This document shows, piece after piece, positions 3,493 through 56,454 of a stretch of DNA of 64,000 nt. Numbering within the stretch: position 1 is the first letter of the stretch; each line of letters begins with the position of its first letter. Source of the stretch: an uncultured Klebsiella sp. Lineage in GTDB: Bacteria > Verrucomicrobiota > Verrucomicrobiia > Limisphaerales > SXTU01. Under the pieces are notes generated by a model that made no database searches, was not told the origin of the DNA, and saw only the letters and a list, made by a program, of their open reading frames with translations. Where the stretch lies: the NCBI GenBank assembly GCA_964478755.1, contig CAYZJP010000006.1:5350-69349 (forward strand), read 5' to 3'. Position numbers and translations under genes: made by a program.

Positions 3493-3508
3493 GTAAACAG
3501 TGGTGGCG

Positions 3509-39092: not shown

Positions 39093-39103
39093 TCCGGGTG
39101 AAA

Positions 39104-40153: not shown

Positions 40154-40159
40154 GACGAC

Positions 40160-41581: not shown

Positions 41582-41585
41582 CGGG

Positions 41586-42707
41586 TCAAGAGCAAGCCCA
41601 CGCCAACTGGCGGGCACGGGCATCCGCCGCGTAGGCGCTGATTTGGTTGCGGGTGCGGGCTAGGGCGTCCTCTGCGTGAGCGTGGTCAGCCTGATACCAG
41701 CGCGCTGTTTCCGCCACCGCGTGGCTGAAGTCCCAGACGGGCTGCCAACCGAGCAGGTGATGCGCCTTGTCCGTGGCCACCTGGAGCAAACGGGCTTCAT
41801 GCACAGCCTGCGGGTCACTGCGGTCTTCCCAGCGGCCCGGCCAGTGGCGGAGGAATTCTTGGACCACTTCGGCCACCGTGCGGTTGGATTCGTTGTCCGG
41901 CCCGAAGTTGAAGGCGCTGCAAAACACGGCAGGCTCGAACAGCCGCAGGGCGGGTTGGGCCAACACCGCCCCGAGCCACAGGTAGCCGCTCAAGGGTTCA
42001 AGCACATGCTGCCACGGGCGGGTGGCGGTTCGGTTGCGGACGGCGATGACCTCACTCCGGCGCAGCGCACGTGCGCAGTCCGGCACGAGCCGGTCAGGGG
42101 CCCAGTCGCCGCCGCCGATGACGTTGCCCGCGCGCGCACTGGCAACCTTCACCGCCTGCGAGTCAGGGAAGAAGGATTTGCGCCATGATTGAATGGCCAG
42201 CTCGGCGGCGGCCTTGCTGGAACTGTAGGGATCGTGCCCGCCGAGCCGGTCGCCCTCCCGATAGCCATGCATCCACTCGCGGTTCTCGTAGCACTTGTCC
42301 GTGGTGACGAAGACGGCGGCGCAGGGATTCTGCAAGCCGCGCAGGGCATCAAGGACGTTTGCCGTGCCAATCACGTTCGTGGCGTAGGTTTCAAGCGGTT
42401 GCTCGTAGGACAGCCTCACCAGAGGCTGGGCAGCTAGATGGAACACAAAGTCCGGCCGGGCCGCATGAAGGGAACGGCGGACGGCGGCAACATCGCGCAC
42501 ATCGCCAATCTCGTGGCGCATCCTTGAGGCAAGGCCAAGCTGTTCAAACAACGCCGGCTCAGTGATGGGGGCCAGCGCAAAGCCATGCACGCGTGCGCCA
42601 AGCGCCAGCAGCCATTCCGCCAACCAGGAGCCCTTGAAGCCCGTGTGGCCGGAAAGCCAGACGGTGCGATTTTGATAGGCCTGTCCGAACATCACCATGT
42701 TTTCCAT
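41586..42707 (-). CDS. rfbG: CDP-glucose 4,6-dehydratase
   Basis: Motifs LSGHTGFKGSWL and YSSSK. The start is one of the ATGs at 42707, 42698 or 42692. Confidence 0.88.
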   Translation of the reverse strand: MENMVMFGQAYQNRTVWLSGHTGFKGSWLAEWLLALGARVHGFALAPITEPALFEQLGLASRMRHEIGDVRDVAAVRRSLHAARPDFVFHLAAQPLVRLSYEQPLETYATNVIGTANVLDALRGLQNPCAAVFVTTDKCYENREWMHGYREGDRLGGHDPYSSSKAAAELAIQSWRKSFFPDSQAVKVASARAGNVIGGGDWAPDRLVPDCARALRRSEVIAVRNRTATRPWQHVLEPLSGYLWLGAVLAQPALRLFEPAVFCSAFNFGPDNESNRTVAEVVQEFLRHWPGRWEDRSDPQAVHEARLLQVATDKAHHLLGWQPVWDFSHAVAETARWYQADHAHAEDALARTRNQISAYAADARARQLAWACS

Positions 42708-43465
42708 GGAGCGTCGCCCGCCTGCCACATCTGGGTGAGCATCTGCTGCTCGCGATAGGTGTCCATGCATTGCCAGAAACCGTGATGCTTGTAGGCCCGC
42801 ACCTGTCCCTGTTCAGCCAACCGACCCAACGGCTCCCGCTCCAGCACGCAATCGTCACCCGACAGATATTCGGCGATGCGCCGGTTAAGCACAAAGAAGC
42901 CGCCGTTGATATATTGGTCCTCCCTGACCTGTTTCTCCCTGAACGCCGCGACGCGCTCACCGGTGAGGACTAAATCGCCAAAGCGTCCGGCTGGCTGGAC
43001 AGCAGTGAGTGTGGCGACGGCACCCTGTCTCTGATGAAATGCGAGGGAAGCTTTGATGTCGCAGTTCGACAGCCCATCGCCGTATGTCAGGAAAAAGTCA
43101 TCTGTGTCAATGTGCGGCAGGGCGCGTTGGAGCCGGCCTCCAGTCATGGTGTTCAACCCGGTGTCGAGCAGTGTGACGGTCCAGTCCTCCTCGGCGTGCG
43201 TGTTGTGGTAGCGGACTTGTGGATTGCGCCCCAACCTGAGGGTCACGTCGCTCGTGTTCCAGTGGTAGTTCCGGAAGTAGTCCTTGATAACCTCGCCCTT
43301 GTAACCAAGGCAGAGGATGAAATCCTTGAACCCATGGCTGGCATAACCCTTCATGATGTGCCAGAGGACGGGCTGATCGCCGACGGGCACCATGGGCTTG
43401 GGGCGGAATTCAGTCTCTTCGCGCAGACGGGTGCCCAACCCGCCGCAGAGGATGACGACTTTCAT
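42692..43465 (-). CDS. rfbF: Glucose-1-phosphate cytidylyltransferase
   Basis: MKVVILCGGLGTRLREETEFRPKPMVPVG. Start computed from ORF 42692..43531, forming an ATGA overlap with the wzt stop. Confidence 0.9.
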   Translation of the reverse strand: MKVVILCGGLGTRLREETEFRPKPMVPVGDQPVLWHIMKGYASHGFKDFILCLGYKGEVIKDYFRNYHWNTSDVTLRLGRNPQVRYHNTHAEEDWTVTLLDTGLNTMTGGRLQRALPHIDTDDFFLTYGDGLSNCDIKASLAFHQRQGAVATLTAVQPAGRFGDLVLTGERVAAFREKQVREDQYINGGFFVLNRRIAEYLSGDDCVLEREPLGRLAEQGQVRAYKHHGFWQCMDTYREQQMLTQMWQAGDAPWKTW

Positions 43466-44805
43466 AAGGTGGAAGCTGCCGACAACTGCCTCGTGTGCCA
43501 AGGCAGGCGCGGGCGGATAGCGCCGATCCACATCCCGGTGTATTCCTTGCGCATCGCTCCATGGTCCACGGCATTGAATGTGAGGATTTCGTTGCGGGCC
43601 ACGCGAACGGCCCCGGCCCCGTTCAACAGAAAGACGCTCAACGAGTGGGGTCCGTCATTGAGGAAGTTTGCCGGAATGGTGAGGCAGCTTTGATAACGCC
43701 CAAAAGGATGCGGTCGCATGGCCCACTCGTCCCTACCTGCGTTGGCGGAGGGCGCGTTGGCAGTGGCGAACAGACAGCCTCCCAAGCCGGAGTTCACATG
43801 GATGCTAACCAGCACGGAAGTCCCGGCGCGTAAGACCTCGTAGTCCACCTGCACCTGGATATCCTGGTCCATGTTGGCCTCAGAGGTCACCTCGCCACTC
43901 GAAACAACACGCACGCCCCAGAGGCGCAGCGCGGCGTCCTGCGGGCATTCGTTCGCATCGCTCCATTCCACGGCACCACCGGAGGATCGCAACACGTGCA
44001 GGTATTGCTCGATGGTCTTCTCCACGGCATCGAACACGCGTAACCGGCCACGCTCCAGCAGGAGTCCCTGGCGGCACAAGGTTCGCACGACGGCCATGTT
44101 GTGGCTGACAAAGATCACCGTGCGCCCGCCACGGCTCACGTCCTGCATCTTTCCCAAGCACTTCTTCTGAAACTCAGCGTCGCCCACGGCCAGCACCTCA
44201 TCCACGATCAGGATTTCCGGCTCCAAGTGCGCCGCGACCGCGAAGGCCAGCCGCACATACATGCCCGAGCTGTAACGCTTGACCGGCGTGTCGAGAAACT
44301 TTTCAACCTCCGCAAAGGCCACGATCTCGTCGAATTTGATACGGATTTCGGCCCGAGTCATCCCGAGGATGGCTCCGTTCAGAAAGATGTTCTCCCGGCC
44401 AGTTAGCTCAGGATGAAAGCCCGTCCCGACTTCCAGCAGACTCGCCACCCGTCCTCGCAGGCGGATGCGCCCAGTGGTCGGCTCGGTGATGCGGCTCAAT
44501 AGCTTCAGGAGCGTGGATTTGCCAGCGCCGTTCCGCCCAATGATGCCAACCACCTCGCCCTGCTTTATCTCGAAGGATACATCCTTCAACGCCCAAAAAT
44601 CTTCCTCAGCGGATCTGGAAGAAGTGTTCAGCGCCTGACTCTGGCCCTCTCCGCGAGCGAGGCGGAGTGGCGAAAGCCGGCGGGCAAGATCCTTAACCTT
44701 GTCTGCAATCACATCGCGGAGAGCCGTGTAACGCTCGCGCTTCTGCTGGTGCTGGATGCGGTAGCACTTGCCAAGATTTTCAACCGTGATGATGGCTTCA
44801 GACAT
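43462..44805 (-). CDS. wzt: Polysaccharide ABC exporter ATP-binding protein with extended C-terminal domain (Wzt-type)
   Basis: Walker A GRNGAGKST, signature YSSGMYVRL and Walker B ILIVDEVLAVGD, plus about 190 extra C-terminal residues. Confidence 0.88.
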   Translation of the reverse strand: MSEAIITVENLGKCYRIQHQQKRERYTALRDVIADKVKDLARRLSPLRLARGEGQSQALNTSSRSAEEDFWALKDVSFEIKQGEVVGIIGRNGAGKSTLLKLLSRITEPTTGRIRLRGRVASLLEVGTGFHPELTGRENIFLNGAILGMTRAEIRIKFDEIVAFAEVEKFLDTPVKRYSSGMYVRLAFAVAAHLEPEILIVDEVLAVGDAEFQKKCLGKMQDVSRGGRTVIFVSHNMAVVRTLCRQGLLLERGRLRVFDAVEKTIEQYLHVLRSSGGAVEWSDANECPQDAALRLWGVRVVSSGEVTSEANMDQDIQVQVDYEVLRAGTSVLVSIHVNSGLGGCLFATANAPSANAGRDEWAMRPHPFGRYQSCLTIPANFLNDGPHSLSVFLLNGAGAVRVARNEILTFNAVDHGAMRKEYTGMWIGAIRPRLPWHTRQLSAASTL

Positions 44806-45641
44806 CAGATCACATCAGCGAAGGTCTTCTCGGTGCGCCGGAAATACCAGATGCCTAGCGCGCACATTGCGATGGTCACCAGCCAAGACGATGCCACGGT
44901 GCGCAGTTCCAGCGGGCTGGCTCCTTTCAGGCAGGCCCAACGGAAGCCCTCGATCACCCCAACCATCGGGTTCAAATCGTAGAGCCAGCGCAGATACTCA
45001 GGCACTCGTTCACTGCCGAAGCCAACAGGGGACACATACAAGCCGAATTGGACGATGAATGGCACGACATACCGGAAGTCGCGGTATTTCACGTTCAAGG
45101 CGCAGAGGAGAAGACCGGCACCTAGCGCGGCGGCAAAGGCCTGCAGGATGAAGAGCGGCAAGGTCAAGATGCGCCAGTCCGGTGTGAACTGATACCACAC
45201 CATCAACAACGCGAGCATTACGAGGGTGATGACGAAATCCACCAGGCTGGTGATCACCGAGCCGACGGGCACGATGAGCCGCGGAAAATACACCTTGGAA
45301 ATGAGCCCCGAGTTAGAGAGAAGCGAGCCGCTCGCCTCGGAAAACGCCGAGGCAAAGAATTGCCATGGCATCATCGCCGCGCTGACAAACAGCGCGTAAG
45401 GCAGGTCGGCGGGTGCCTCCAGCTTGGCGATACGGTTGAAGACCAAGGTGAACACCACCACCGTCACGAAGGGCCGGATCACCGCCCAGGCGATGCCGAT
45501 CACCGTCTGCTTGTAACGCACCAAGATGTCGCGCCAGGCCAGAATGTAGAACAACTCGCGGTAGTTCCACAGGTCGCGCCAATACTGTTGCTCGGTGCGG
45601 CCCGCCTCAATGACCAGCTCCCTAGATTTCTCGTTTGCCAT
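44805..45641 (-). CDS. wzm: ABC-2 type polysaccharide exporter permease (Wzm-type)
   Basis: ORF 44805..45653, start at the ATG at 45641 (MANEKS). Contains LAWRDILVRYKQTVIGIAWAVIRP and six hydrophobic segments. Confidence 0.88.
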   Translation of the reverse strand: MANEKSRELVIEAGRTEQQYWRDLWNYRELFYILAWRDILVRYKQTVIGIAWAVIRPFVTVVVFTLVFNRIAKLEAPADLPYALFVSAAMMPWQFFASAFSEASGSLLSNSGLISKVYFPRLIVPVGSVITSLVDFVITLVMLALLMVWYQFTPDWRILTLPLFILQAFAAALGAGLLLCALNVKYRDFRYVVPFIVQFGLYVSPVGFGSERVPEYLRWLYDLNPMVGVIEGFRWACLKGASPLELRTVASSWLVTIAMCALGIWYFRRTEKTFADVI

Positions 45642-45659
45642 GCCAGCGTTCAATCGCAG

Positions 45660-46316
45660 TCAGTAGCGGCACCAGTAGTAAGCCATCAACACGCACTCAT
45701 GCTCGAAGGCCAGCAGGCCCTCCTTGGTGCGCCACCAGTGATCCACGTCATAATCCGGGACTGCCACGGCCACCACGCTGGCCTGCATCCCGGCGGGCCA
45801 CCTCAGCCGCCGCACCAGCCACGCCTTCCGCCGTGTGGCAAATGGCGACGCGGGCAAAACCACCCGCGTTACGCGGTTGCTCCGGACCCAGCCCTGCAAG
45901 GCCACCATCTCGCTGTGCATTGTCGCCAGCTCCTCGCCGACCACGACCAACGCCGACTCCGGCACGCCGGCTTTGCCCAGCTCGTTCAACCGCCACTGAA
46001 GCCGGGGCTCGGTGATCCCGGCGCGATCCGTGGGCTGCGTCTCTTCGCGCAGTAGCACCAATCGGTCGACCTTGTGCTCCCGAAACCAGTCGATCGCACG
46101 GTCGAACGATTGCGCGCGCGCGCCGGCACTGAGTGCGACTGCGTCGGCAGAACTGAACTGGTCGGACACGACCCACCCCCGCGCCGCGATGCGCAATGCG
46201 GGCCGCCAGAAACACCCGGCGAGCACTCCCAACAGCACGCAACCCGCAGGCAGCCAGCGCAACGCCCGCCACCGGCCACCGGCGGCGGCGCCATTATTTG
46301 AGGGCGTAGAAGACAC
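45660..46316 (-). CDS. DUF218 (YdcF/ElyC/SanA-like) protein with N-terminal anchor
   Basis: 218 aa with a TM segment followed by the DUF218-type core (DAVALSAG...VDRLVLL...). Start codon is GTG. Confidence 0.6.
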   Translation of the reverse strand: MSSTPSNNGAAAGGRWRALRWLPAGCVLLGVLAGCFWRPALRIAARGWVVSDQFSSADAVALSAGARAQSFDRAIDWFREHKVDRLVLLREETQPTDRAGITEPRLQWRLNELGKAGVPESALVVVGEELATMHSEMVALQGWVRSNRVTRVVLPASPFATRRKAWLVRRLRWPAGMQASVVAVAVPDYDVDHWWRTKEGLLAFEHECVLMAYYWCRY

Positions 46317-46953
46317 TCTTGATCAGTTCCGATTGAAACGAGATGACGCCGCGTTCGTCCCGCCACCACTCCTGCCAGCGATAGCCCGGCGGGTCCACTA
46401 CCGTGACCAGCAGGCGTGTTTCCGAGCCGTGGAACAACTTGCGCCCAAGCCGGCTCAGGCGACGCGTGTGGTAAGGATCGGTCGGCACGAGGATCGTTCG
46501 CGCGCCGTTTGTTTTAGCCCACACACGAACGGCGAGAATCTCATCGTTCGTGCTGTTGACCGCGTGGCCGACCAGCTCGTGTGCGCTGCGCGGCACGCCT
46601 TCGTGTTCCAGCACGCGCCCGATCAATTCAGTTTCCGGACTGACGGTCCGTCCCAAGCTCGCGTCCTCGACAGAGAGCGCGATGTCGGGATAAAGCACCT
46701 TGGCTGTCTTGCCGTCCTTGAACAGGCGCGCGGCGGCGAATGTGCGATACTGCGCGCCGCCGCCCCGCACCATGATCGCATCGGCGTGCTCGATGGGATC
46801 GTTCACCACCCACGCGTAAATCATCCCCGTCAGCCAGCGCTCACGCGTCTGCCACGCAACGCCCGCTAGCAACGCACATCCCAGCGCGATCGCGCCCAGC
46901 CACTTCAACCAGCGCTTGCGCCGGAGGCTGACAACGGTGGAGGTGGCGGTCAT
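46294..46953 (-). CDS. DUF218 (YdcF/ElyC/SanA-like) protein with N-terminal anchor
   Basis: 219 aa with DAIMVRGGG ... NSTNDEILAVRVWAKTNGARTILVPTDPYHTRR. Confidence 0.7.
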   Translation of the reverse strand: MTATSTVVSLRRKRWLKWLGAIALGCALLAGVAWQTRERWLTGMIYAWVVNDPIEHADAIMVRGGGAQYRTFAAARLFKDGKTAKVLYPDIALSVEDASLGRTVSPETELIGRVLEHEGVPRSAHELVGHAVNSTNDEILAVRVWAKTNGARTILVPTDPYHTRRLSRLGRKLFHGSETRLLVTVVDPPGYRWQEWWRDERGVISFQSELIKSVFYALK

Positions 46954-46968
46954 CGGGGGAAAGGGACT

Positions 46969-47979
46969 TCAGCTCTGTGCGTCGGCGAGATACCAGTGCA
47001 CCGTCTCGCGGAGACCAGTCTCGAACGTGTGCGCGGGCCGCCAGCCGAGCTCGCGGTCAATCTTGGCGGCGTCAACCGCGTAGCGGCGGTCGTGGCCGGG
47101 GCGGTCTTTCACGAAGGTGATGAGCTTGCGCGAATTGCCGCCGAGCTGCGGGGCCAATTCGTCCACGAGGTCGCAGATGAGTTCCACGATGCGGAGGTTG
47201 GGCCACTCGTTGTGGCCGCCGATGCAGTAGGTCTCGCCGTTGCGTCCACGCAAAAGTGTTTGCCAGAGGGCTTGCGCATGATCGGTCACGTAGAGCCAGT
47301 CGCGGACGTTCATGCCGTCGCCGTAAACTGGAATGGGCTGACGGGCAGCCGCTTTCCCGATGACGACGGGGATGAGTTTCTCAGGGAACTGGCGCGGGCC
47401 ATAGTTGTTCGAGCAGTTCGTGATGACGGTGTCCAGGCCGTAGGTGTGGTGATACGCACGGACGAGCAGATCGCTGGCGGCCTTGCTTGCGGCGTAAGGC
47501 GAGTTCGGCGCGTAGGGCGTGGTCTCGGTGAAGTGGCCCGTCGTGCCGAGGCTGCCGAAGACTTCATCGGTGCTGACGTGCAAGAAACGCGCGCACAACT
47601 TGGAACCTAAAACTTGAAACTCGGAACTGCTCCACTGGGCGCGGCAGGCTTCGAGGAGGTTGAAGGTGCCGACGATGTTGGTCTGGATGAAGTCGCCGGG
47701 GCCTTCGATGGAGCGGTCCACGTGCGACTCTGCCGCGAGGTGCAGGACATGCGTGATGGCGTGCTCGCTCACGACGCGGAGCGTGGCGGTCTTGTCGCGC
47801 AAGTCCACTTGCTCGAAGCGATACTTTGGATGCGCGGCGACGGACTGCGCGTTCTCCAAGCAACCCGCGTAGGTGAGGCAGTCGAGGTTCACGACGCGCG
47901 CGACTTCCGGCTGCGCCACCACGTGATCGAGCACATGAGAGCCGATGAAGCCGCAACCGCCGGTGACGAGGAGGTTCAC
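46969..47979 (-). CDS. rfbB: dTDP-glucose 4,6-dehydratase
   Basis: Motifs [13 protein letters not shown] and YAASK. Start set to the GTG at 47979; the ORF track begins at the TTG at 47991. Confidence 0.9.
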
Positions 47980-47983
47980 TGGC

Positions 47984-48868
47984 TCAGGCAAGATTGCCGA
48001 TGCGCCGGAACTCGGCGGCGACGCCCTGCAGGTAATCGCGATACTCGCAACCCGGCATCTTCGCCGTGAGTGCCTCGAACTGCTCCACGCTCAGGAAGCC
48101 GCGCCGCAGGGCCGCTTCCTCCGGGCAGCCGATCTTCACACCCTGCCGCTTCTCGATGGTCTGCACATAGGCAGACGCATCATGCAAACTCGTGCTCGTG
48201 CCGGCGTCGAGCCACGCGAAGCCGCGGCTGAGGCGACGCACCGCGAGCCGTTCACGGCGGAGGTATTCCTTGTTCAAGTCGGTGATTTCCAATTCACCGC
48301 GTGGTGAGGGCTTCAGCGCCTTGGTGAGCGCGACCACCTCGTTGTCGTAGAGATACACGCCCGGCACGGCGTAGTTGCTCTTTGGCTGCCTGGGCTTTTC
48401 CTCCAGTGAAATGGCCCGACCGCTGGCATCGAATTCCACCACGCCGTAGCGCTGCGGATCGTGGACGTGATAGGCAAAGATGGTCGCTCCGCCGGCAAAC
48501 TCCGCGACGGCGCGCGGGAAGGTGTCGTCGCCGGAGAAGATGTTGTCGCCCAGGATGAGCGTCACCGCGTCGCGCCCGATGAAGGACTCGGCGATGAGAA
48601 ACGCCTGCGCGATGCCCTCGGGCTTCGCCTGCTCGCGATACTCGATGCTTACGCCCCACGCGGAGCCGTCGCCGAGAAGCTGGCGGAAGCGCGGCAGATC
48701 GTGCGGCGTGGAAATGAGGCACAGTTCACGGACGCCGCTGGCCATGAGCGTGGTCAGCGGGTAATAGACCATCGGCTTGTCATAGACGGGCTGGAGCTGT
48801 TTGCTGGCCACCAAGGTCAGTGGAAACAACCGGGAGCCTGCGCCGCCTGCGAGGATTATGCCTTTCAT
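47984..48868 (-). CDS. rfbA: Glucose-1-phosphate thymidylyltransferase
   Basis: [18 protein letters not shown]. Start is the ATG at 48868. Confidence 0.92.
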
Positions 48869-48875
48869 GGCGACC

Positions 48876-50627
48876 TCAATTCTTCCGCGTGACGATCCAG
48901 TCACCCAGCACGAGCACGTCCATCTTCGTGCGCAGGAAGCAATCGAGCGCTTCCTCGGGCCGGCAGACCACGGGCTCGTTCTCGTTGAACGACGTGTTCA
49001 GCACCATCGGCACACCGGTCAGCGCACGGTAGCTGTCGATGAGCCGGTGATAGCGCGGGTTGGTTTCCTGGTGGACGGTCTGCAACCTGCCTGAACCGTC
49101 CACGTGCGTGGTGGCCGGCACAAGCGCGCGTTTCTCAGCGCGGACTTGGAAAACTTCCATCATGAAGGGCACGTCGTCCTCCTGCTCAAACCACTCGGCC
49201 ACGTGCTCGCGCAAGATGCTCGGCGCAAACGGGCGGAAGCTCTCGCGGCGTTTGATCTTGAGGTTGAGAATGTCCTTCATGTCCGCGCGGCGCGGGTCGC
49301 CGAGGATGGAGCGGTTGCCCAGCGCGCGCGGCCCCCATTCCATGCGGCCTTGGAACCAGCCGATGACTTTGCCTTCAATGATGGCCTGCGCCGTGCGGCG
49401 GCAAAGTTCCCCTTCGTCGGCAAGATGCTCAGTGGTGCAACTCTCCGCGCGGATGTCCGCCGCCTTGCGGTCGAGAAGCATCTTCATCTCCGCTTCAGTC
49501 GCGCTCGGACCCCAGTATCCGTGGTCCATGGGCAGGCGTGTTTTCACATCGCCGAGCCGGTTGGCGACGACAAACGCGGAGCCGATGGCACCGCCAGCAT
49601 CGCCCGCCGCAGCGGGAAGATACATCCGCTTGAACGGTGACTTGAGGTAAATCTTCCCGTTTGCGACGGAGTTCATCGCGCAGCCGCCGGAAAGCGCGAG
49701 GTTCGGGCAGCGATACTTCGCGTGCAACGTGTGGAGCAGCGCGAAGAACGTCTCCTCATACATCGCCTGCGCCGATCGGGCCAAATCCTTGTGCCGCTGG
49801 TCGAGCGGCTCGCCGGCTTTGCGCGCAGGGCCGAGAAGTTTTTCCAGCTCGGGGCTGAAGACCGTGCCAATCTCGGGCGAGCAGTTGTCCCACGTGTAGT
49901 GGACGTTCTCGCGGTGGTGCCGGAAGAACTCCAAGGCGAGCTTGAACGTGCCGTCGAACTGCACACGCACGATTTGCCGCATCTGCTCCAGAAACTTTGG
50001 CTCACCGTAGGGTGCGAGACCCATGACCTTGTATTCGTCGCCGTAATGCGGAAAGCCGATGAACTGCGTGATGGCCGTGTAGAAGAGGCCCAGTGAGTGG
50101 GGGAAGTAAACCCGTCCGTCAATATGGATGCTCCCGCCGCGCCCCATGCCCCACGCCGAGCTGGCGAAATCCCCGAAGCCGTCCACCGAGAGGCACACCG
50201 CCTGGTCGAAGTTCCCGACGTGAAACGCGGAGGCGAGGTGCGCGAGGTGATGCTCGACGTGGTGCATCTGCGCACGCAGCGTCTCGCCCGGCAAGGCCGC
50301 ACGCACCGAGTCTTCGAAGGACGACGCGCGGCGGATGTTGCGGATGCGATTGAGGATCAACTTCGGGCTGGGCATCCGACGCAGCGCGTAGGCCACGCGG
50401 CGGAAATTGTTCACCGACGGATCACGGTTGATGGCGACGTGCTCGACGTCCGCGAGCTTGAGACCGTCCTCGCGCAACACGTAGCGGATCGCCTCCGACG
50501 GCATACCTGACCAGTGTTTCACGCGGCGGAAGCGCTCCTCCTCCGCGCACGCGACAAGCTTGCCATCACGCACGAGGCAAGCAGCGGAATCACCGTGAAA
50601 CGCGTTCAGTCCGAGAATGACAGCCAT
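48876..50627 (-). CDS. Carbamoyltransferase (NodU/CmcH family), second paralogue
   Basis: ORF 48876..50696 trimmed to the ATG at 50627 (MAVILGLNAFHGDSAACLV). Contains HHLAHLASAF and VLNTSFNENEPVV. It lacks the C-terminal tail found in the copy at 8917. Confidence 0.9.
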   Translation of the reverse strand: MAVILGLNAFHGDSAACLVRDGKLVACAEEERFRRVKHWSGMPSEAIRYVLREDGLKLADVEHVAINRDPSVNNFRRVAYALRRMPSPKLILNRIRNIRRASSFEDSVRAALPGETLRAQMHHVEHHLAHLASAFHVGNFDQAVCLSVDGFGDFASSAWGMGRGGSIHIDGRVYFPHSLGLFYTAITQFIGFPHYGDEYKVMGLAPYGEPKFLEQMRQIVRVQFDGTFKLALEFFRHHRENVHYTWDNCSPEIGTVFSPELEKLLGPARKAGEPLDQRHKDLARSAQAMYEETFFALLHTLHAKYRCPNLALSGGCAMNSVANGKIYLKSPFKRMYLPAAAGDAGGAIGSAFVVANRLGDVKTRLPMDHGYWGPSATEAEMKMLLDRKAADIRAESCTTEHLADEGELCRRTAQAIIEGKVIGWFQGRMEWGPRALGNRSILGDPRRADMKDILNLKIKRRESFRPFAPSILREHVAEWFEQEDDVPFMMEVFQVRAEKRALVPATTHVDGSGRLQTVHQETNPRYHRLIDSYRALTGVPMVLNTSFNENEPVVCRPEEALDCFLRTKMDVLVLGDWIVTRKN

Positions 50628-50777
50628 GCGCCGCGGAAAGAAATCAGGCCAAGCTGCCGCCCTTGGTCGGGAGCCGGAAAACTCCGGCCAGACCATGCTG
50701 GCGCACCGCGTTCGATTGTCTGTTTCGCGACACGAGGTCGGAAACCGTCTGCCCTGCCCGGCGAACCGGGCGAAAAG

Positions 50778-51439: not shown

Positions 51440-52573
51440 CTACTTCAGTGCCGCGCGGATCACCGGCTCGAAGATGTCCGCCTGCCGCATGAAACCGAGG
51501 TCATTCGCGTGCGAGGCGTCCGTCGCGCCGTCGGCATCGTCGCCGTAAAGATGGTCGCCGCCGATGTAGTGCAGCTTCGCAACACCGTCCTTCTTCAACT
51601 GCTCGTAGGCGGCCCGCAACGCGGCGTGGTTGTCGTCGTGGAATTTTTTCTTCGCGGGCGTGATCCAGTCATTCGTGAAGCGCCGGTCCTCGACGAGCAC
51701 GATGGGGGTGTTGGGCCGCGACGCGCGGAGCTGTTTCACCAGCGGGATGCACTTGGCCGTCACATCCGCCGGTCCCATGTTCGGCAGGCAGTCAATCACA
51801 TACACGGCGGCGTCAATCTCCGTCAGCAGCTCGCCCACGGCGGCGTCCATGCGGCCGTTGCCGGAGAAACCGACGTTGATGACGGGCCGGTCGAAACGCC
51901 GGCCGAGAATCGCCGTATGCACCATGCCGGGCCGCGACGCACACGCGCCGTGAGTGATGGACGTGCCGTAGAAGATGATCGGCTTCTCCGTGCGCGGCGC
52001 GAGGCCCTCGAACTTCGCGCCCGCCGGCACGCCGATTTCGAGCGACTCGATGCCGTTGTAGAGCGGGAGATAGGCCGCGTATTCGCGTTCGCCGGGCGCG
52101 AGATCGCTGATGATGGTGGCCTCGACCTTCGGCGAGCTGGGCCGCGTGACGTTGACCCACTTCCATTTTTCGTCGGTGTCGCGCGCGTAGAGGTCGAGGC
52201 CGCTGACGCCGGTGGCGGGCATGTGCGGCATGGCGAGGTTCGTCTTGGAGAGCGTGTAGCGCGTGTAGATGGCCTTCGCGTCCGTCTTGAAGCGCACCAT
52301 CATGCCGGCGCTGTCGCGGCTCAGGCTCCAGACGGCGGACGTGACCTTGCCCTCGGCCTTGGCGGGCAGGCGGTCGAACCACCGCTTGCGCTCCTGATCG
52401 GCCCAGCCACGGCCCTCGACGCCCCACTTCGTCACGTCATGCCATGCAGCATCGGCGGGAATCGCATTCGCAGCAGCTTTGGGCGGCGCGGGTTTCACCG
52501 CCGGCTTGGGCGCGGGCTGCTGGGCAACAACCGTGGTGGCGAGGACGAACGCGAGGAAGAGGGCGGATCTCAT
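51440..52573 (-). CDS. Secreted SGNH/GDSL-type carbohydrate esterase
   Basis: ORF 51440..52657 trimmed to the ATG at 52573 (MRSALFLAFVLATTVVAQQ, signal-peptide-like). Blocks IIFYGTSITHG and FSGNG. Confidence 0.75.
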   Translation of the reverse strand: MRSALFLAFVLATTVVAQQPAPKPAVKPAPPKAAANAIPADAAWHDVTKWGVEGRGWADQERKRWFDRLPAKAEGKVTSAVWSLSRDSAGMMVRFKTDAKAIYTRYTLSKTNLAMPHMPATGVSGLDLYARDTDEKWKWVNVTRPSSPKVEATIISDLAPGEREYAAYLPLYNGIESLEIGVPAGAKFEGLAPRTEKPIIFYGTSITHGACASRPGMVHTAILGRRFDRPVINVGFSGNGRMDAAVGELLTEIDAAVYVIDCLPNMGPADVTAKCIPLVKQLRASRPNTPIVLVEDRRFTNDWITPAKKKFHDDNHAALRAAYEQLKKDGVAKLHYIGGDHLYGDDADGATDASHANDLGFMRQADIFEPVIRAALK

Positions 52574-52649
52574 GGCGAGGGCGGAATGTTTCTGAACTGG
52601 GTTCACGCGAGGAGTCTTGGCCGGGCGCAGGCCGGGCGTCAACGCCGTG

Positions 52650-52715
52650 TCACTCAAACAGCCCCTGAATCTCCTCCCACGTCAGGTTGTCCGCGAGGGT
52701 TTCCTCACCGCCGAG
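52650..52715 (-). pseudogene. Detached copy of the last 21 codons + stop of the SNF2 helicase gene
   Basis: Encodes LGGEETLADNLTWEEIQGLFE*, identical in protein to the end of 53293..56454. There are 7 nucleotide differences in 66 nt and all are silent. Confidence 0.8.
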
Positions 52716-52784
52716 GGCAGTGGACTCCGCTGCTGCTTCGGAGCCGGACTTGCTTGCAGTGAGAGGCATCGCTAGTTTCGGAGC

Positions 52785-52988
52785 ATGAAGTTTCGCTTGT
52801 TGGTCACGCTGGATGAACAGACGCACCGTTGGTCGGCGGTTTTCCCCGAATTGCCCGGCTGTGCCACGGCGGGCGACACTGAGGCGGAGGCTGTAGCGAA
52901 CGCCAAAGAAGCGCTCGACCTGTGGTTCGAGCCGACCCCCGTGAAACTGGCCAAAAGTGCCAAGCTGTTGGAACTCGCGGTGCCGTGA
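52785..52988 (+). CDS. hicB: HicB-family antitoxin (short, UPF0150-type, no DNA-binding domain)
   Basis: 67 aa: MKFRLLVTLDEQTHRWSAVFPELPGCATAGDTEAEAVANAKEAL. Confidence 0.8.
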   Translation: MKFRLLVTLDEQTHRWSAVFPELPGCATAGDTEAEAVANAKEALDLWFEPTPVKLAKSAKLLELAVP

Positions 52989-53202
52989 GCCGCGCTTTCC
53001 AATCCGCAACGCGAAGGAGGTCGTGCAGGTTCTCCGTCGGCACGGCTTCGCGTTGGTGGGTCAGGCCGGAAGCCATCAGAAATGGCGGCATCCCAACGGA
53101 CGGCAGGTCATCGTGGCGATGCACGGGAGCAAGCCCATCCCGATTGGCACGCTCAAGAGCATCATCGAAGGCAGTGGCTTGGGCGTGGAGGAGTTTCGGT
53201 AG
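52957..53202 (+). CDS. hicA: HicA-family mRNA interferase toxin
   Basis: KEVVQVLRRHGFALVGQAGSHQKWRHPNGRQVIVAMHGSKPIPIGTLKSII. The GTG start at 52957 overlaps hicB, and the exact start is uncertain. Confidence 0.8.
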   Translation: MPSCWNSRCREPRFPIRNAKEVVQVLRRHGFALVGQAGSHQKWRHPNGRQVIVAMHGSKPIPIGTLKSIIEGSGLGVEEFR

Positions 53203-53292
53203 TTTGGCAGCGGGTGATCAAAGCAGTGTGGAGCAGCAAGGCCAGGGACTGAGCTTTGCCAAGCCAGAAAGAGTGAAGTTGTCCCGGCCAAT

Positions 53293-56200
53293 TCACTCAA
53301 ACAACCCTTGAATTTCCTCCCAAGTCAAATTGTCCGCGAGGGTTTCCTCGCCGCCGAGCGTGGCCTTGATGATCGCGCGCTTCTTTTGCTGAAGGGCTAA
53401 AATCTTCTCCTCCACGGTGCCGCGTGCGATGAGCTTGTAGCTCGTCACCACGCGGGTTTGGCCGATGCGGTGCGCGCGGTCAGTGGCCTGGTCTTCCACT
53501 GCGGGGTTCCACCACGGGTCGAAGTGAACGACGGTGTCCGCGCCTGTGAGTGTGAGGCCCACGCCACCGGCTTTCAGGCTGATGAGGAAGACGGGAATCT
53601 TCGCGTTGCCCTGAAACTTCTCCACCACCGCGCCTCGGTTCGTGGTCGAGCCGTCGAGGTAACAGAACTCGATGTTGTCCGCCGCGAGCTTGTCCTTCAG
53701 CAGCGCGAGCATGGTGGTGAACTGGCTGAAGACGAGCACGCGATGCCCGCCGTCAATGGCCTCCTCCAGCAGTTCGCCGAACATCGCCAGCTTGCCCGAG
53801 CTGTCGTCGGTGAACTCGGCGTCCTCTATCTTGAGAAGCCGCAGGTCGCAGCAGATTTGCCGCAGCCGCAGCAGCGCATTGAGCACGACCATCTTGCTCT
53901 TCGCGAGGCCCTGCGCACCGACGGCGTCCATGACTTCCTTTTTGCTGACGGCGAGAACCTGCTTGTAAATCTCCGCCTGGTCGTCGGTGAGTTCGCAGTA
54001 GGAAACTTGTTCGAGCTTCGCGGGCAAATCTTTCGCCACCTCGGTCTTGAGTCGGCGCAGAATGAAGGGCCGCAGCCGCCGTCCGAGCCGCGCCGGCACG
54101 GCCTCGTCCTTGTCACGCGTGATGGGCTGCTCGTAGCGCTCCTTGAAGTCCGCCGCCGAGCCGAGATAGCCGGGCATGAGGAAGTCGAAGATGCTCCAAA
54201 GGTCGAGCACCGAGTTCTCCATCGGCGTGCCGGTGAGCACGAGCCGGTGCGTGGTCTGCACAGCCTTCACGGCCTGCGAGTTCTGCGTCTGGCGGTTCTT
54301 GATGTGCTGCGCTTCGTCGAGCACGAGCGTGTCGAACTCGAACTCACGATACTTCTCCGCGTCGCGCCGGATGAGCGCGTAACTGGTGATGACAAGCTGG
54401 CTCCACGCAACTTCATCGAAGCGCGCGTGGCGGCTCGCGCCGTGCAGCGCGACGGCCTTCAACTGCGGCGTGAACTTCTTCGCCTCCGCGAGCCAGTTGA
54501 AGACAAGCGAGGTCGGGCACACGATCAAGACCGGGCCGGAGAGCTTGCGGTTCGTGTGACACGAGTGGAGGAACGCGAGCGTCTGGAGCGTTTTGCCAAG
54601 ACCCATTTCGTCCGCGAGAATGCCCCCGAATTTGTTCTCGCGGAGAAACTGCAACCACGCGACGCCCTGCCGCTGATACGGACGCAACACGTCTTCGAGC
54701 GCGCCGAGCGGCGGGCAGGTGAGCTTTGTCTGGCCGCTCTGCTGCGACGCGCGTTCACGCCAGCCAGCCGCAGCTTGCACCTGCCAGCCAGGCTGCTGCC
54801 GAAGCGTGGCATCGAGGAAGCCCGCCTGCACGTCGCTGAAGCGGTAGCCGCGCGCGTGCTGCTGCGGCGCGCAGTCTCGCAGCACTTCGTTGAACTCCTC
54901 CAGCGCGCCCGTATCAATCAGCGCGATGCGGCCGTTCTTCAGGCGCGTCGTGCCGTTGCCGGAGAGAATGAGCCGCTGGATGTCGGCGGCGGAAAACTTT
55001 TCGCCGTCCGCCGAGCCGAGCGACATCTCGACATCAAACCACCGCTCGCCCGACGGACGAATCTCGAAGCGCGGTTCCAGCCGCTCGAAGTTCTTGGTCG
55101 TGCTGTGCTGCAACCGCTCTTCCAGCGAAACGTCCCATTCCTTCTGGAGACGCGGGTAATCCTTCGCGAAGAAGCGCACGACCGCGCTTTCGCCGTGGAG
55201 ATTCCAGCGCCCTTGCGCGTCGGGACCGTTGAAGCCCGCGCGCCGCATCCGTTCCGCCGCCGCGACCTCGGCACTGAAGTCACGCGTCGAGTAGCGCGTG
55301 GTGCACTTCGGGTCCGGCAGCCAGAGCGATTCGTCCTTCGCGGTCACGCCCACGGTCATGATGCGCGGGCCGTAAGCGCACTGGAGTTGGGCCTGCACCT
55401 GCGCCAGACCGCCGTTGAGCGCGAGGATGAAGCGCGGCGACTGCGGCTCCAGTGTGAATTCATCAATGCCGAAGTTCGCGTCCACCTCGCTCTCGGCTTC
55501 GAGCACGACGAGCTCCTGACTGAGGAAGAGCGGCACGCGCGTGCGCGGCAGTTTCATCGGTGCTCGGAACAGCTCGCGCCACTGCTTCGGCAGGCCCACC
55601 GGCTCCAGCGAGTCACCGCGAAACGCCCAGAGCGACTCGCCCGCGATGAGCGTGGGCGCGCGAAGATTCGACGGGAGGTTCAGGCGAATCTCCCCGGACG
55701 TTTCCAGCGTGACCTCGACGGGCACGCGCCACGAGGTCGCGCCGATGGCGAGCGGCTGGCCGCGTCCGAGCGCCACGCGCGGGTGCCCTCCGAGCGCGTC
55801 GAGCAGTTGCGTCAACTCGACGAGATTGAGCATGAGGCCGCCGGGCGTTTCGTCGCCGGCGAGTTCCTCGGCCTTGTCGAGCAGGCGCGCGTCCTCGGGC
55901 GAGAGCGCGAAGGGCTGGTTCATCGGCAGCGCGCTCAACGGCGCGCGGCCCTTGGCCCACTTGCCCTCGAACGTGACCATGACTTTCCCGCGCTCGATGC
56001 CTTGCGCGAAAGTCGGCGGGAGGATGACGGAGATTTCGAGCGGCTGGCCGTTGGCGGCGCGCTTCAGCTTCGGCCCCGGCTGCGGCTCCGGCTCGCGCGC
56101 GACGGACCGAGTCGTTCCGAACCGTGCAGGCAGTGGTGTCGCCGTGTCGCTCCCACGCGGGGCGGGCTTGTTGCTCAAAATATGATGCAGCCCCACCGCC

Positions 56201-56454
56201 ACCGAGTGCGCGCAGATGAGGCCGGCCTCGCGGGAAGCGCGGCACGTGCAGAGGTTGTCAATGTCCACCGGCCCCTTGATGACCAGCCCGGCGCGGTAGG
56301 ATGAAGTGCCTTCCTGCACGACGCCCTTGAGCAGCGGCGGCGTCCAGTTCGAGGAGAGCACGCGTTCCGAAGCCAGCAGCGACCGGGCGTTTTTGACCGC
56401 CTCCCAGCCCGCCGCCCTCGTGAAGAAGGCTTCCGTCAACTCGGTGAAACTCAT
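53293..56454 (-). CDS. SWIM zinc-finger / SNF2-family helicase fusion
   Basis: ORF 53293..56586 trimmed to the ATG at 56454 (MSFTELTEAFF). SWIM motif CTCRASREAGLICAHSVAV. Helicase motifs LADEMGLGKT, DEAQHIKN and QATDRAHRIGQ. Confidence 0.9.
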   Translation of the reverse strand: MSFTELTEAFFTRAAGWEAVKNARSLLASERVLSSNWTPPLLKGVVQEGTSSYRAGLVIKGPVDIDNLCTCRASREAGLICAHSVAVGLHHILSNKPAPRGSDTATPLPARFGTTRSVAREPEPQPGPKLKRAANGQPLEISVILPPTFAQGIERGKVMVTFEGKWAKGRAPLSALPMNQPFALSPEDARLLDKAEELAGDETPGGLMLNLVELTQLLDALGGHPRVALGRGQPLAIGATSWRVPVEVTLETSGEIRLNLPSNLRAPTLIAGESLWAFRGDSLEPVGLPKQWRELFRAPMKLPRTRVPLFLSQELVVLEAESEVDANFGIDEFTLEPQSPRFILALNGGLAQVQAQLQCAYGPRIMTVGVTAKDESLWLPDPKCTTRYSTRDFSAEVAAAERMRRAGFNGPDAQGRWNLHGESAVVRFFAKDYPRLQKEWDVSLEERLQHSTTKNFERLEPRFEIRPSGERWFDVEMSLGSADGEKFSAADIQRLILSGNGTTRLKNGRIALIDTGALEEFNEVLRDCAPQQHARGYRFSDVQAGFLDATLRQQPGWQVQAAAGWRERASQQSGQTKLTCPPLGALEDVLRPYQRQGVAWLQFLRENKFGGILADEMGLGKTLQTLAFLHSCHTNRKLSGPVLIVCPTSLVFNWLAEAKKFTPQLKAVALHGASRHARFDEVAWSQLVITSYALIRRDAEKYREFEFDTLVLDEAQHIKNRQTQNSQAVKAVQTTHRLVLTGTPMENSVLDLWSIFDFLMPGYLGSAADFKERYEQPITRDKDEAVPARLGRRLRPFILRRLKTEVAKDLPAKLEQVSYCELTDDQAEIYKQVLAVSKKEVMDAVGAQGLAKSKMVVLNALLRLRQICCDLRLLKIEDAEFTDDSSGKLAMFGELLEEAIDGGHRVLVFSQFTTMLALLKDKLAADNIEFCYLDGSTTNRGAVVEKFQGNAKIPVFLISLKAGGVGLTLTGADTVVHFDPWWNPAVEDQATDRAHRIGQTRVVTSYKLIARGTVEEKILALQQKKRAIIKATLGGEETLADNLTWEEIQGLFE

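Follow-up and report, generated by a model that had tools for sequence, protein, structure and literature searches.

A SNF2-family helicase gene, a hicB-hicA toxin-antitoxin (TA) pair and a GxDLY/SGNH esterase gene lie next to each other in the 64-kb stretch of DNA that was analysed as a whole in this study (the window). The last 21 codons of the SNF2 gene are present twice, once at the end of the gene and once detached from it beyond hicB. The features of the locus are as follows, in window positions.

51440-52573, minus strand: GxDLY/SGNH esterase gene, the native downstream neighbour (PF14606, PF14607)
52574-52649, minus strand: native intergenic region 5' of the esterase gene, with a putative promoter role
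52650-52715, minus strand: detached tail copy, 21 codons and TGA
52650-52769, minus strand: ATG ORF of 39 aa, which holds the detached tail
52716-52784, no strand: distal arm of the cassette, made of the hicB upstream region and a degenerate continuation of the tail
52785-52988, plus strand: hicB antitoxin gene, short 67-aa form (PF15919, E = 9.6e-10)
52957-53202, plus strand: hicA toxin gene, its frame open from the GTG at 52957 (PF07927)
53203-53292, no strand: 90-nt spacer from the SNF2 stop to the hicA stop, between convergent genes; proximal end of the cassette
53293-53358, minus strand: attached tail copy, the last 21 codons and stop that now end the SNF2 gene
53293-56454, minus strand: SNF2-family helicase gene, 1053 aa from MSFTELTEAFF, the putative target and homology anchor

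The SNF2 gene product matched PF08455 (SNF2_assoc), PF00176 (SNF2-rel_dom) and PF00271 (Helicase_C), and orthologues of 1053 aa were called in L081, L083, L166, L176 and L182. HicA matched PF07927 with E = 5.4e-19 over profile positions 1-57 of 58, and the PF15919 match of HicB covered the N-terminal part only. The SNF2, HicB and HicA assignments of the initial annotation were thereby confirmed by Pfam. We also agree with its description of a short 67-aa HicB without a DNA-binding domain; this form is the norm in the HicB family (more than 1000 clusters of homologues, with nearly all of the best 120 at 67 aa). In orthologous loci, hicA follows hicB with a 4-nt overlap. The hicA gene of the window has lost one base at codon 3, between 52991 and 52992, compared to five orthologues, and this 1-nt deletion, a detail absent from the initial annotation, puts out of frame the canonical start, a GTG at 52985 that overlaps with the stop of hicB. 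Gene callers skipped hicA on L081 and L082. The locus shares the HicA and HicB domains with the type II HicAB TA systems and differs from them by this frameshifted hicA start. The hicA family is under purifying selection, and synonymous differences outnumbered nonsynonymous ones among hicB codons. The hicB of the window had its nearest match in the L170 copy, which is at a different locus (21 codons differ), and not in that of L084, from which it differs at 32 codons although the context is the same. This agrees with horizontal movement.

Both tail copies encode LGGEETLADNLTWEEIQGLFE and a stop on the minus strand. They differed at 7 of 66 nt, and all seven differences, at codons 3, 10, 11, 12, 15, 17 and 19, were silent. 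At six of these sites the detached copy has G/C and the attached copy A/T, the exception being codon 3 (GGT detached, GGC attached). The two copies, their silent differences and the G/C bias had been reported in the initial annotation, and coordinates and translation bore them out. The probability that seven of seven differences are silent was about 3e-5 under random substitution and about 2e-4 with transitions weighted. The copies lie 643 bp apart, start to start. The next best direct repeats in the 3-kb region were no longer than 31 nt and 72-74% identical, and a tail profile run against the whole 64-kb window found two copies only, the known pair. The identical arrangement was present in two independent Logan assemblies (L081 and L082); therefore, it is not an assembly artefact.

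One explanation for the silent differences is that the 39-aa ORF is a functional small gene, whose peptide mimics the helicase C-terminus as a decoy or regulator and is kept by selection. The ORF has an ATG start and an intact frame, it was called by gene finders on L081 and L082, and a related ORF of 38 aa with an intact tail is found in L182. However, its tail-containing part is missing in L084 through an 84-bp difference and has decayed in L087, and the stop codon of the detached copy is lost in L004. Conservation of the N-terminal part is poor (the whole ORF is 74% identical, with the identical tail counted), and this part overlaps the hicB upstream region. The ORF had no Pfam match. The ORF is not conserved in relatives and, on sequence grounds, is probably not a real gene. 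We regard a functional peptide as very improbable.

A non-coding near-copy of a gene's 3' end that lies downstream of the gene is the layout of the VR/TR pair of a diversity-generating retroelement (DGR) and of silent pilin cassettes. The layout of the window resembles both, and the repeat could be read as a DGR template or as a silent gene-conversion donor for the helicase C-terminus. However, the differences were not adenine-specific and none altered the protein, the tail peptide was essentially invariant across orthologues, and no reverse transcriptase was listed in the gene tables around related loci. A DGR is contradicted by the substitution pattern, and programmed variation of either kind has a negligible chance of being correct.

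Next to this, the composition of the two copies was compared with that of the SNF2 gene. The GC3 of the gene was 0.855, and the mean of its 21-codon windows was 0.86. The attached 21 codons, with a GC3 of 0.667, fell in the lowest 2.1% of these windows, whereas the detached copy (0.81) was typical of the gene. The attached tail has five unusual synonymous codons (AAT, TTG, ACT, GAA and CAA). Its Gln codon CAA was otherwise found only in the attached tail of L084 and in a remnant in L178 that adjoins hicA1, both at hicBA loci. When compared with the SNF2 tails of relatives, the detached copy was as close as or closer than the attached one in 37 of 37 cases. The detached copy also continues straight into the esterase upstream region, which is conserved in L084, L083 and L001 and contains a -35-like TTGACG at 52637-52642. 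In the SGNH-context relatives, every cassette junction lies just 5' of this TTGACG region, and orthologues of the esterase follow SNF2 and a cassette in L001, L083, L084, L166 and L168. The detached copy of the window is homologous in position to those of L004, L085, L087 and L182. These results suggest that the attached end came in with the cargo and that the detached copy is the native SNF2 3' end, now displaced.

Relatives with the same architecture but other cargo were compared, in which, as in L087, L182 and L183, the SNF2 protein was at least 91% identical. L004 and L089 carry HEPN and MNT genes with a detached tail of 29 codons, and the cargo of L006 and L085 is a Gly-zipper small membrane ORF. 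Matching empty sites were found for L004 (L003, L009 and L010) and for L085 (L086 and L094). In both L004 and L085, the 3' part of the detached copy and the DNA downstream of it were the native sequence of the empty site, and the attached tail differed. The native tail at the empty sites that match L085 ends in QNLFE*, as does the detached copy of L085, whereas its attached copy ends in KELFE*. By this comparison, the detached 3' part was shown to be native and the attached end imported in these sister loci. An empty site in the window's own context (SNF2-SGNH without a cassette) was searched for among the relatives and was not found; we infer the insertion history of the window itself by analogy. 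The initial annotation had read the attached end as imported and the detached end as native, and composition, relatives, downstream DNA and the sister empty sites all support that reading. L084 has an orthologous hicBA in the same SGNH context and lacks the detached tail, so the hicBA insertion could be old. If it is old, the unselected detached copy should show nonsynonymous decay; none was seen, and this counts against the model favoured below.

The SNF2 genes of L085 and L086 diverged by 1.9% over 2750 nt but by 9.3% over the last 410 nt (Fisher p = 1.5e-12). Of the 16 informative sites in the 410-nt patch, 14 agreed with L006, the carrier of the same cassette; upstream, 11 of 21 did. The imported patch extends past the detached tail into the downstream DNA, so that this event was plain allelic replacement from a donor of the same context. 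The L085 event does not show a crossover within the tail, a point against the model favoured below.

These data bear on whether the repeat could have been made in place. In that case, slippage during replication or a staggered break would have doubled the last 66-90 bp of SNF2, either in a single ancestral event or anew with each insertion, and the genes would have landed between the copies later; both copies would be native and the silent differences would have arisen afterwards. This matches a published class of long target duplications without mobility genes. It also agrees with L182, in which hicAB is flanked by a detached tail of 22 codons and the tail copies differ at only 1 of 69 nt, and with the similar position at which several detached tails begin (nearly one point in several cassette types, near ATCATCAAGGCC). 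However, the attached KELFE of L085 departs from the native QNLFE. A dead copy should bear most of the nonsynonymous change, and yet the window differences are all silent, with five of them unusual codons in the attached copy, which is the one under selection and the GC3 outlier. We consider duplication in place rather improbable.

In the related Limisphaerales loci, small cassettes of at least four or five kinds have entered at a single conserved gene end. L087 has an array of SNF2, ORF92, a tail of about 55 codons, ORF172-hicAB, a decayed tail and the native gene, in this order, and L183 has a tail of 49 codons between two further ORFs. The lengths of the detached tails in distinct clusters were 21, 27, 29-30, 36, 40, 49 and 54-55 codons, and many cassettes had no detached tail at all. 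In L170-L175, the order is tail, hicAB, tail, hicAB2, and an SNF2 gene is absent from the vicinity; the cassette order in L178 is the reverse of that in L170. The detached tails of L006 and L085 have a degenerate 5' half in common and context-specific 3' halves, and the degenerate halves end at a common identical core of 18 nt. In the window, the tail continuation in the distal arm reads GAG TCC ACT GCC (compare AAG GCC ACG), and the arm ends at the junction of ACTGCC with CTCGGCGG. The distal arm and the position of this junction are common to hicBA cassettes in L084, L087, L170 and L182. The part of the arm upstream of hicB is presumed to be its promoter; a promoter consensus scan of the hicB upstream region found none. 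At the proximal end, the 90-nt spacer aligned weakly with L084, and relatives have unrelated extra ORFs there.

A defined recombination site could likewise explain the near-constant start of the tails and the hicBA junction, which is constant across several contexts. The SNF2 tail, with a core near AACCTGACGTGGGAGGA, would then be the attachment site for a recombinase encoded elsewhere (Xer-like, integron-like or other). The cassette would be a small circle with an attP-like mimic of the tail, and its insertion would restore the frame and displace earlier cassettes as in an integron. The repeated use of one site by different cargo, the arrays, the tail-flanked array away from SNF2, the reversed order in L178 and the shared core of L006 and L085 all speak for such a site, and the hicBA distal junction is the same in the window, L182 and L170. 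We searched for recombinases with a simple tyrosine-recombinase motif scan, which gave no match in the whole window and none within 6 kb downstream at 160 loci. The sole recombinase among more than 160 loci was a XerC/D-like neighbour in L182, 106 nt from the detached tail; the scan motifs do match this enzyme. Its position speaks for a site-specific system, but neither the window nor any other locus carries a counterpart of it. No IntI integrase was found by motif scan or in the gene tables of related loci. Single-strand DNA folding of the repeat was not significant (z from -1.24 to +1.17 for four tail copies on both strands), no RYYYAAC/GTTRRRY pair was seen in the tail by eye, and no SNF2 tail was found in viral contigs. 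The varying length of the detached tails, the cassettes without one and the imported SNF2 sequence that reaches 410 nt upstream of the tail in L085 also stand against a site-specific process, which we therefore consider unlikely.

The initial annotation had described a cargo of about 640 bp without a recombinase, and indeed the 643-bp insert contains hicB and hicA only and the scan of the window was negative. It had also likened the repeats to those of integrative elements at tRNA genes. This likeness holds for the architecture, but not for the mechanism, since the repeat lengths vary, donor-like sequence covers 410 nt in L085 and recombinases are lacking. For the same reasons, homologous or illegitimate recombination is favoured over site-specific integration.

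In our view, the cassettes rather probably enter through homology-anchored recombination, in which the helicase gene provides the anchor and the duplicated tail serves as a second arm that travels with the cargo. According to this model, the 66-bp repeats would be the scar of an integrase-less hicB-hicA cassette that entered the 3' end of SNF2 with its own copy of the tail. The cassette-borne tail would complete the helicase frame and leave the protein unchanged, and the original end of the host gene would have moved 643 bp downstream, where it would still adjoin the esterase promoter region. The process would be recombinational and not site-specific. DNA from a related genome would pair via the highly conserved SNF2 gene, and its far end would join within or just past the SNF2 tail of the recipient by homology-facilitated illegitimate recombination (HFIR), leading to a tail duplication of variable length. 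A cassette flanked by tails would have two homology arms that are present in every genome with the helicase. It could later spread by ordinary homologous recombination, through two crossovers on linear DNA or through a circle that has looped out with a single tail, in a presumably RecA-dependent manner; the circular intermediates are likewise conjectural. Such spread would be independent of the downstream genes, and repeated events would stack cassettes into arrays. TA cargo may be enriched because addiction would penalise loss by recombination between the direct repeats. The homology-anchored model accounts for L170-L175 only by adding a later rearrangement.

A further reading, possible but doubtful, is that the SNF2-tail repeat is the functional end of an undescribed class of integrase-less mobile cassettes. 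Circles of cargo and a tail of 21-55 codons would re-insert at any tail copy via host RecA or a recombinase acting in trans. If this is true, the tail acts like the attC of an integron, as a coding mimic of a host gene end, and the arrays of L170-L175 and the reversed order of L178 are products of this mobility.

How TA and other addiction modules integrate into chromosomes is still unclear according to a 2026 survey (PMC13617665). The locus would be a concrete and repeatable case of such a module moving without a transposase or integrase, and it offers matched empty sites, an array and a donor-like patch as material for further work. It also suggests a general trick, in which a conserved gene end carried on the cassette provides two homology arms from one gene, and this would allow entry into any related genome, independently of how the genes around the site are arranged there. 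An addictive cargo would guard the unstable direct repeat against loss. In annotation, a small ORF that finishes with a copy of its neighbour's C-terminus should be treated as a displaced gene end.

Integrative islands and prophages at the 3' ends of tRNA or protein genes carry a replacement end, and their decayed forms without an integrase include CIMEs. The cassettes resemble them in flanking direct repeats, a restored target, a displaced native end and tandem accretion. However, they have no integrase in or beside them, except for the XerC/D-like neighbour in L182, they are only 0.3-1 kb long, the limits of their repeats and the positions of the crossovers are variable, and donor sequence enters the gene body. 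With integron arrays, they have in common small single-function cassettes, often TA, that enter at one site with a repeat each, the newest nearest the insertion point. Unlike in integrons, there is no IntI and no attC-like fold, the repeat belongs to the coding part of a host gene, and the cassettes, mostly facing the opposite way, have what are presumed to be their own promoters.

Restriction-modification (R-M) gene units have been reported to insert with long target duplications (Nobusato et al. 2000; Furuta, Abe & Kobayashi 2010, PMC2853133). This class is recognised by an addiction module without a mobility gene, an insert of <20 kb and direct repeats of >30 bp (PMC2853133), and the window shows all three. 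The R-M repeats vary in length and align with a target that is present once in genomes with an empty site, some of them include part of a gene's 3' end, and a repeat-driven cycle of amplification and release has been proposed (PMC2853133). The single-copy target at an empty site is matched in the sister loci L004 and L085. In contrast to R-M units, the cargo here is TA pairs and small ORFs, one gene end is reused, the cassettes are arrayed, the host belongs to the Verrucomicrobiota and one repeat copy, in L085 at least, came from outside and does not duplicate the target.

Sequential displacement that leaves orphan modules is known at T6SS effector-immunity, Rhs and CDI loci (Kirchberger 2017, PMC5361080; Koskiniemi 2014, PMC3967940), and HFIR followed by ordinary homologous recombination, with no integrase, has been proposed for the T6SS/Rhs loci (PMC5361080). 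There, likewise, a conserved gene body is the anchor, and a new 3' end with a linked gene pushes the old end downstream into orphan arrays. However, the swapped 3' end at those loci is a new toxin domain, the cargo is its immunity gene and the protein changes. Here, the tail is identical as protein and would serve only as homology, and the cargo is unrelated and self-contained (TA pairs or ORFs of unknown function), mostly on the opposite strand. The SNF2 locus would extend the displacement idea to a housekeeping-type gene with an unchanged protein. The best explanation is that the SNF2-tail cassettes are a TA version of both long-target-duplication insertion and the sequential displacement of Rhs/T6SS loci.

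The 3' end of the SNF2-family helicase gene in the window adjoins a toxin-antitoxin module and a second copy of the gene end. The copy ending the gene is designated here as the attached tail, and the copy beyond the module as the detached tail. The features of this region are as follows.

51440-52573, minus strand: GxDLY/SGNH esterase gene, downstream neighbour of the detached tail
52650-52715, minus strand: detached tail, second copy of 21 codons and stop
52785-52988, plus strand: hicB, 67 aa, PF15919
52957-53202, plus strand: hicA (frame of the HicA domain), PF07927
53293-53358, minus strand: attached tail, 21 codons and stop, end of the helicase gene
53293-56454, minus strand: SNF2-family helicase gene, 1053 aa, with SNF2_assoc, SNF2-rel_dom and Helicase_C

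Both hicB and hicA lie between the tails and converge on the helicase gene. Translation showed that both tails encode the peptide LGGEETLADNLTWEEIQGLFE followed by a stop. They differed at 7 of 66 nt and all seven differences were synonymous, for which the chance would be 3e-5 to 2e-4 if substitutions were random. In a repeat search, this 66-nt pair was the sole long repeat of the region, and the whole 64-kb window contained only two copies of the helicase tail. An identical arrangement was present in two independent assemblies (L081 and L082). The 66-nt duplicate with seven silent differences, as claimed in the initial annotation, was thus confirmed by coordinates, translation and two independent assemblies. 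A 39-aa ORF containing the detached tail was judged unlikely to be a real gene. Diversity-generating retroelement (DGR) or silent-cassette variation was excluded, since the differences between the tails were silent and not adenine-specific. Upstream of this region (39100-50700) lies a polysaccharide-synthesis cluster unrelated to the finding. Its genes, assigned by eye, encode sugar epimerases/dehydratases, nucleotidyl-transferases, an aminotransferase-like protein, ABC-transporter-like ATPase and permease proteins and a carbamoyltransferase; Pfam support came from two matches only, NTP_transferase and carbamoyltransferase, on the identical contig L081.

At six of the seven differing sites, the detached tail had G/C and the attached tail A/T. 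GC3 was 0.855 for the whole helicase gene, 0.667 for the attached 21 codons and 0.81 for the detached copy, and the attached value was within the lowest 2.1% of 21-codon windows of the gene. When compared with the helicase tails of relatives, the detached copy was as close as, or closer than, the attached copy in 37 of 37. The unusual codons of the attached copy were AAT, TTG, ACT, GAA and CAA. The Gln codon CAA was found elsewhere only in the attached tail of L084 and in a remnant adjoining hicA1 in L178, both hicBA loci, and every native tail had CAG at this position. The upstream region of the esterase gene begins directly after the stop of the detached tail and was conserved in three related loci (L084, L083 and L001) from a -35-like TTGACG onward. 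Sister loci (described below), together with composition and synteny, support the earlier reading that the attached end is imported and the detached end is native. GC3 also fell mildly across the last ~40 codons of the SNF2 gene in the window. No recombination breakpoint was resolvable within this gene, because nucleotide identity to the closest relative reaches only 90.6%.

The distal junction of hicBA was constant, just before the LGGEE codons (in the window ...ACTGCC, followed across the junction by CTCGGCGG). It was found in four contexts: next to the esterase gene (window), the XerC/D-like gene of L182, a second hicBA pair (L170) and, decayed, the PQQ gene of L087. The window hicB differed at 21 codons from that of L170 and at 32 from that of L084, though L084 has the same context as the window. 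Both the constant junction and the closeness of hicB to that of L170 count in favour of homologous recombination. One base is missing at codon 3 of the window hicA (52985-52995, GTGAGCC-GCGC), where five hicA orthologues read GTGAGCCAGCG or a close variant. This loss takes the conserved GTG start, at the overlap with the hicB stop, out of the reading frame of the HicA domain; gene finders skipped hicA on identical Logan contigs. Judged from sequence, the HicA toxin of the window may be inactive, or else may start at GTG 52957 inside hicB.

Helicase orthologues were collected at 160 loci from one species-representative-genome scan and one metagenome-contig scan. The close relatives among them were Limisphaerales/Pedosphaera-type Verrucomicrobiota, and extra tail copies among the loci were confined to a clade in which protein identity was at least 91%. 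Cassettes and tail copies in related genomes were arranged as follows.

L004 (= L089): SNF2, HEPN and MNT toxin-antitoxin pair (opposite strand), 29-codon tail, secreted PQQ-like protein gene
L085, L006: small Gly-zipper membrane ORF, then a tail copy with a degenerate 5' half
L087, 7200-8830: SNF2, ORF92, tail (~55 codons), ORF172 with hicA hicB, decayed tail, PQQ gene
L182: SNF2, ORF163, hicA hicB, 22-codon tail, XerC/D-like gene
L183: 49-codon tail between two unrelated ORFs
L084, occupied, no detached tail: ORF156 and hicBA
L083/L168 and L001/L166, occupied, no detached tail: HEPN/MNT
L176, occupied, no detached tail: lipoprotein and hicBA
L005, occupied, no detached tail: PIN_10 and DUF433
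L002, occupied, no detached tail: ORF179 and fragments of hicA and a PIN gene

The two-cassette array of L087 has three tail copies of falling preservation, with the strongest decay in the most distal copy, which adjoins the native PQQ-like gene. The detached tail of L182 differs from its attached copy by 1 nt. The extra ORFs between tail and hicA (L084, L087, L176 and L182) had no homology to one another, and a Pfam scan of ORF156 of L084 and ORF172 of L087 gave no match. Cargo is not always convergent with SNF2, as ORF157 in L176 lies on the SNF2 strand. These varied occupied sites mark the helicase 3' end as a hotspot for the gain, and subsequent erosion, of small cassettes, most of them toxin-antitoxin pairs. 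Downstream of the helicase in L002 (7900-8130) are C-terminal fragments of hicA and of a PIN-domain gene, apparently left over from toxin-antitoxin cassettes that have eroded. The base loss in the window hicA fits such erosion elsewhere at the helicase 3' end.

Two further observations concern L001. On either side of its HEPN/MNT cassette (2275-2550 and 3345-3600; = L166/L167) are ~200-250 nt of extra sequence with many short palindromes, such as CCAACCCCAACGGGGTTG and ACCCCGTTGGGG. Neither L004 nor L083 has these stretches, which may represent REP- or MITE-like insertions. At 511-2274 of this MAG contig (= L167), the helicase ORF consists of an epimerase-like N-terminus fused to the C-terminal half of SNF2, probably an assembly chimera or a rearrangement.

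The last 30 helicase residues were also searched against 1.84 billion representative proteins. This search found short ORFs that join non-SNF2 sequence to tails of 21, 27, 36, 40, 49 and 54 codons. One of the proteins, P0253, is an 86-aa ORF in which unrelated sequence is fused to a 54-codon helicase tail of a diverged type belonging to another clade (…LAGEEQLAESLTWEEIQELLA), and helicase gene-end displacement may thus occur outside the close clade as well.

In L003, L009 and L010, the downstream gene of L004 immediately follows the helicase stop, and these loci are therefore empty sites. The detached copy of L004 could be aligned to the native tail of these loci and to their intergenic DNA, and has CAG in place of the TAG stop. 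For the context of L085, the empty sites are L086 and L094, with a native tail ending in QNLFE and a stop. L085 has retained a detached copy with this QNLFE end and the native downstream DNA, and its attached tail ends in KELFE. No empty SNF2-SGNH site was found among the contigs of four close SGNH homologues, which had other neighbours (carbonic anhydrase, sulfatase) or SNF2 with HEPN/MNT; the history of the window was therefore inferred from sister loci, composition and synteny. L084, with an orthologous hicBA in the context of the window, is exactly 84 bp shorter where the detached tail of the window sits. If the insertion predates the split of the window and L084, dead DNA would not be expected to encode so perfect a detached-copy peptide. 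The intact peptide would be accounted for if the copy had arrived recently or had been refreshed through recombination.

We compared the helicase gene of L085 with that of its empty-site sibling L086. The difference was 1.9% over 2750 nt and rose to 9.3% in the final 410 nt (p = 1.5e-12). L006 carries the same cassette, and within this 410-nt patch L085 agreed with it at 14 of 16 informative sites, compared to 11 of 21 upstream. The imported patch runs through the cassette and then ~90-300 nt past the detached tail; this event was therefore an allelic replacement from a donor of the same gene order, and L085 does not prove an intra-tail crossover. The detached tails of L006 and L085 have a common degenerate 5' half and differing, context-specific 3' halves, and they switch at an identical 18-nt stretch, CAACCTGACGTGGGAGGA. 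These chimeric tails show that DNA has passed between contexts that differ in gene order.

Recombination, and not an integrase, most likely drives the process. We propose that each cassette type would be born by homology-facilitated illegitimate recombination (HFIR), with the helicase gene as anchor and the far end joining within or just after the recipient tail. Later spread would occur by ordinary homologous recombination, with the helicase body serving as the first arm and the duplicated tail as the second, the latter found in every genome with this helicase. Transfer could proceed as a linear double crossover or as a looped-out circle with one tail, repeated events would stack cassettes, and addictive cargo may resist deletion by repeat-repeat recombination. 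All surviving esterase-context junctions are just 5' of the TTGACG box, which would fit selection to keep the putative promoter of the esterase gene.

A site-specific system, in which a recombinase supplied in trans acts on the helicase tail, was considered unlikely. Detached tails ranged from 21 to 55 codons, a variability that argues against it. Tyrosine-recombinase motifs (box I and box II), to which the scan was confined, were found neither in the window nor in the 6 kb downstream of the 160 loci, so that no such recombinase adjoined the cassettes there. The motifs, checked afterwards, do match the XerC/D-like tyrosine recombinase encoded at 6223-7146 of L182, 106 nt beyond the detached tail. 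Neither the window nor any other locus had a counterpart of this gene, which is probably just the native neighbour in that genome. Folding predicted no single-strand structure for the tail repeat, which also ruled out an attC-like folded site. A phage or provirus as tail carrier was rejected, since there was no IMG/VR match and no viral contig had the tail; this absence likewise speaks against a site-specific system. What keeps a trans-acting recombinase or circle integration in play is a set of two-tail hicAB arrays away from SNF2.

L170, 4373-4989 (also L171-L175): hicBA between two 64-nt SNF2-tail copies, a different hicAB pair after the distal tail
L178, 4900-5570, and L180, 750-1410: 39-nt decayed tail after hicA2, internally deleted tail remnant between the pairs

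L170-L175 thus read tail, hicA hicB, tail and second hicAB pair, and their contigs contain no helicase gene. The hicBA of L170 is the closest relative of that in the window (HicB 90% identical). Both tails of this type have a common derived ACC-to-GCC change (Thr-to-Ala codon), to which the proximal tail adds other amino-acid changes. In L178-L180, the two hicAB pairs of L170 are in reversed order and the tail remnants are decayed, which looks like cassette shuffling. Together, these loci suggest that a tail-plus-cargo unit is able to move on its own.

The recombinational reading has precedents. Restriction-modification units insert with long target duplication and without mobility genes; their repeats vary, exceed 30 bp and in some cases extend over gene ends (PMC2853133). 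Sequential displacement, described for T6SS effector-immunity, Rhs and CDI loci and attributed to HFIR and then homologous recombination, leaves arrays of orphaned 3' ends (PMC5361080, PMC3967940). The window locus differs from an integron, having neither IntI nor an attC fold, and from a classical integrative island, having no integrase in the motif scan and probably no fixed core. Long-target-duplication insertion and T6SS/Rhs/CDI sequential displacement are the closest published kinds, and the window case varies on both. Unlike in these systems, the cargo consists of toxin-antitoxin modules, the imported end is protein-identical and has only a homology role, and many cassettes have used one and the same housekeeping-type helicase end.
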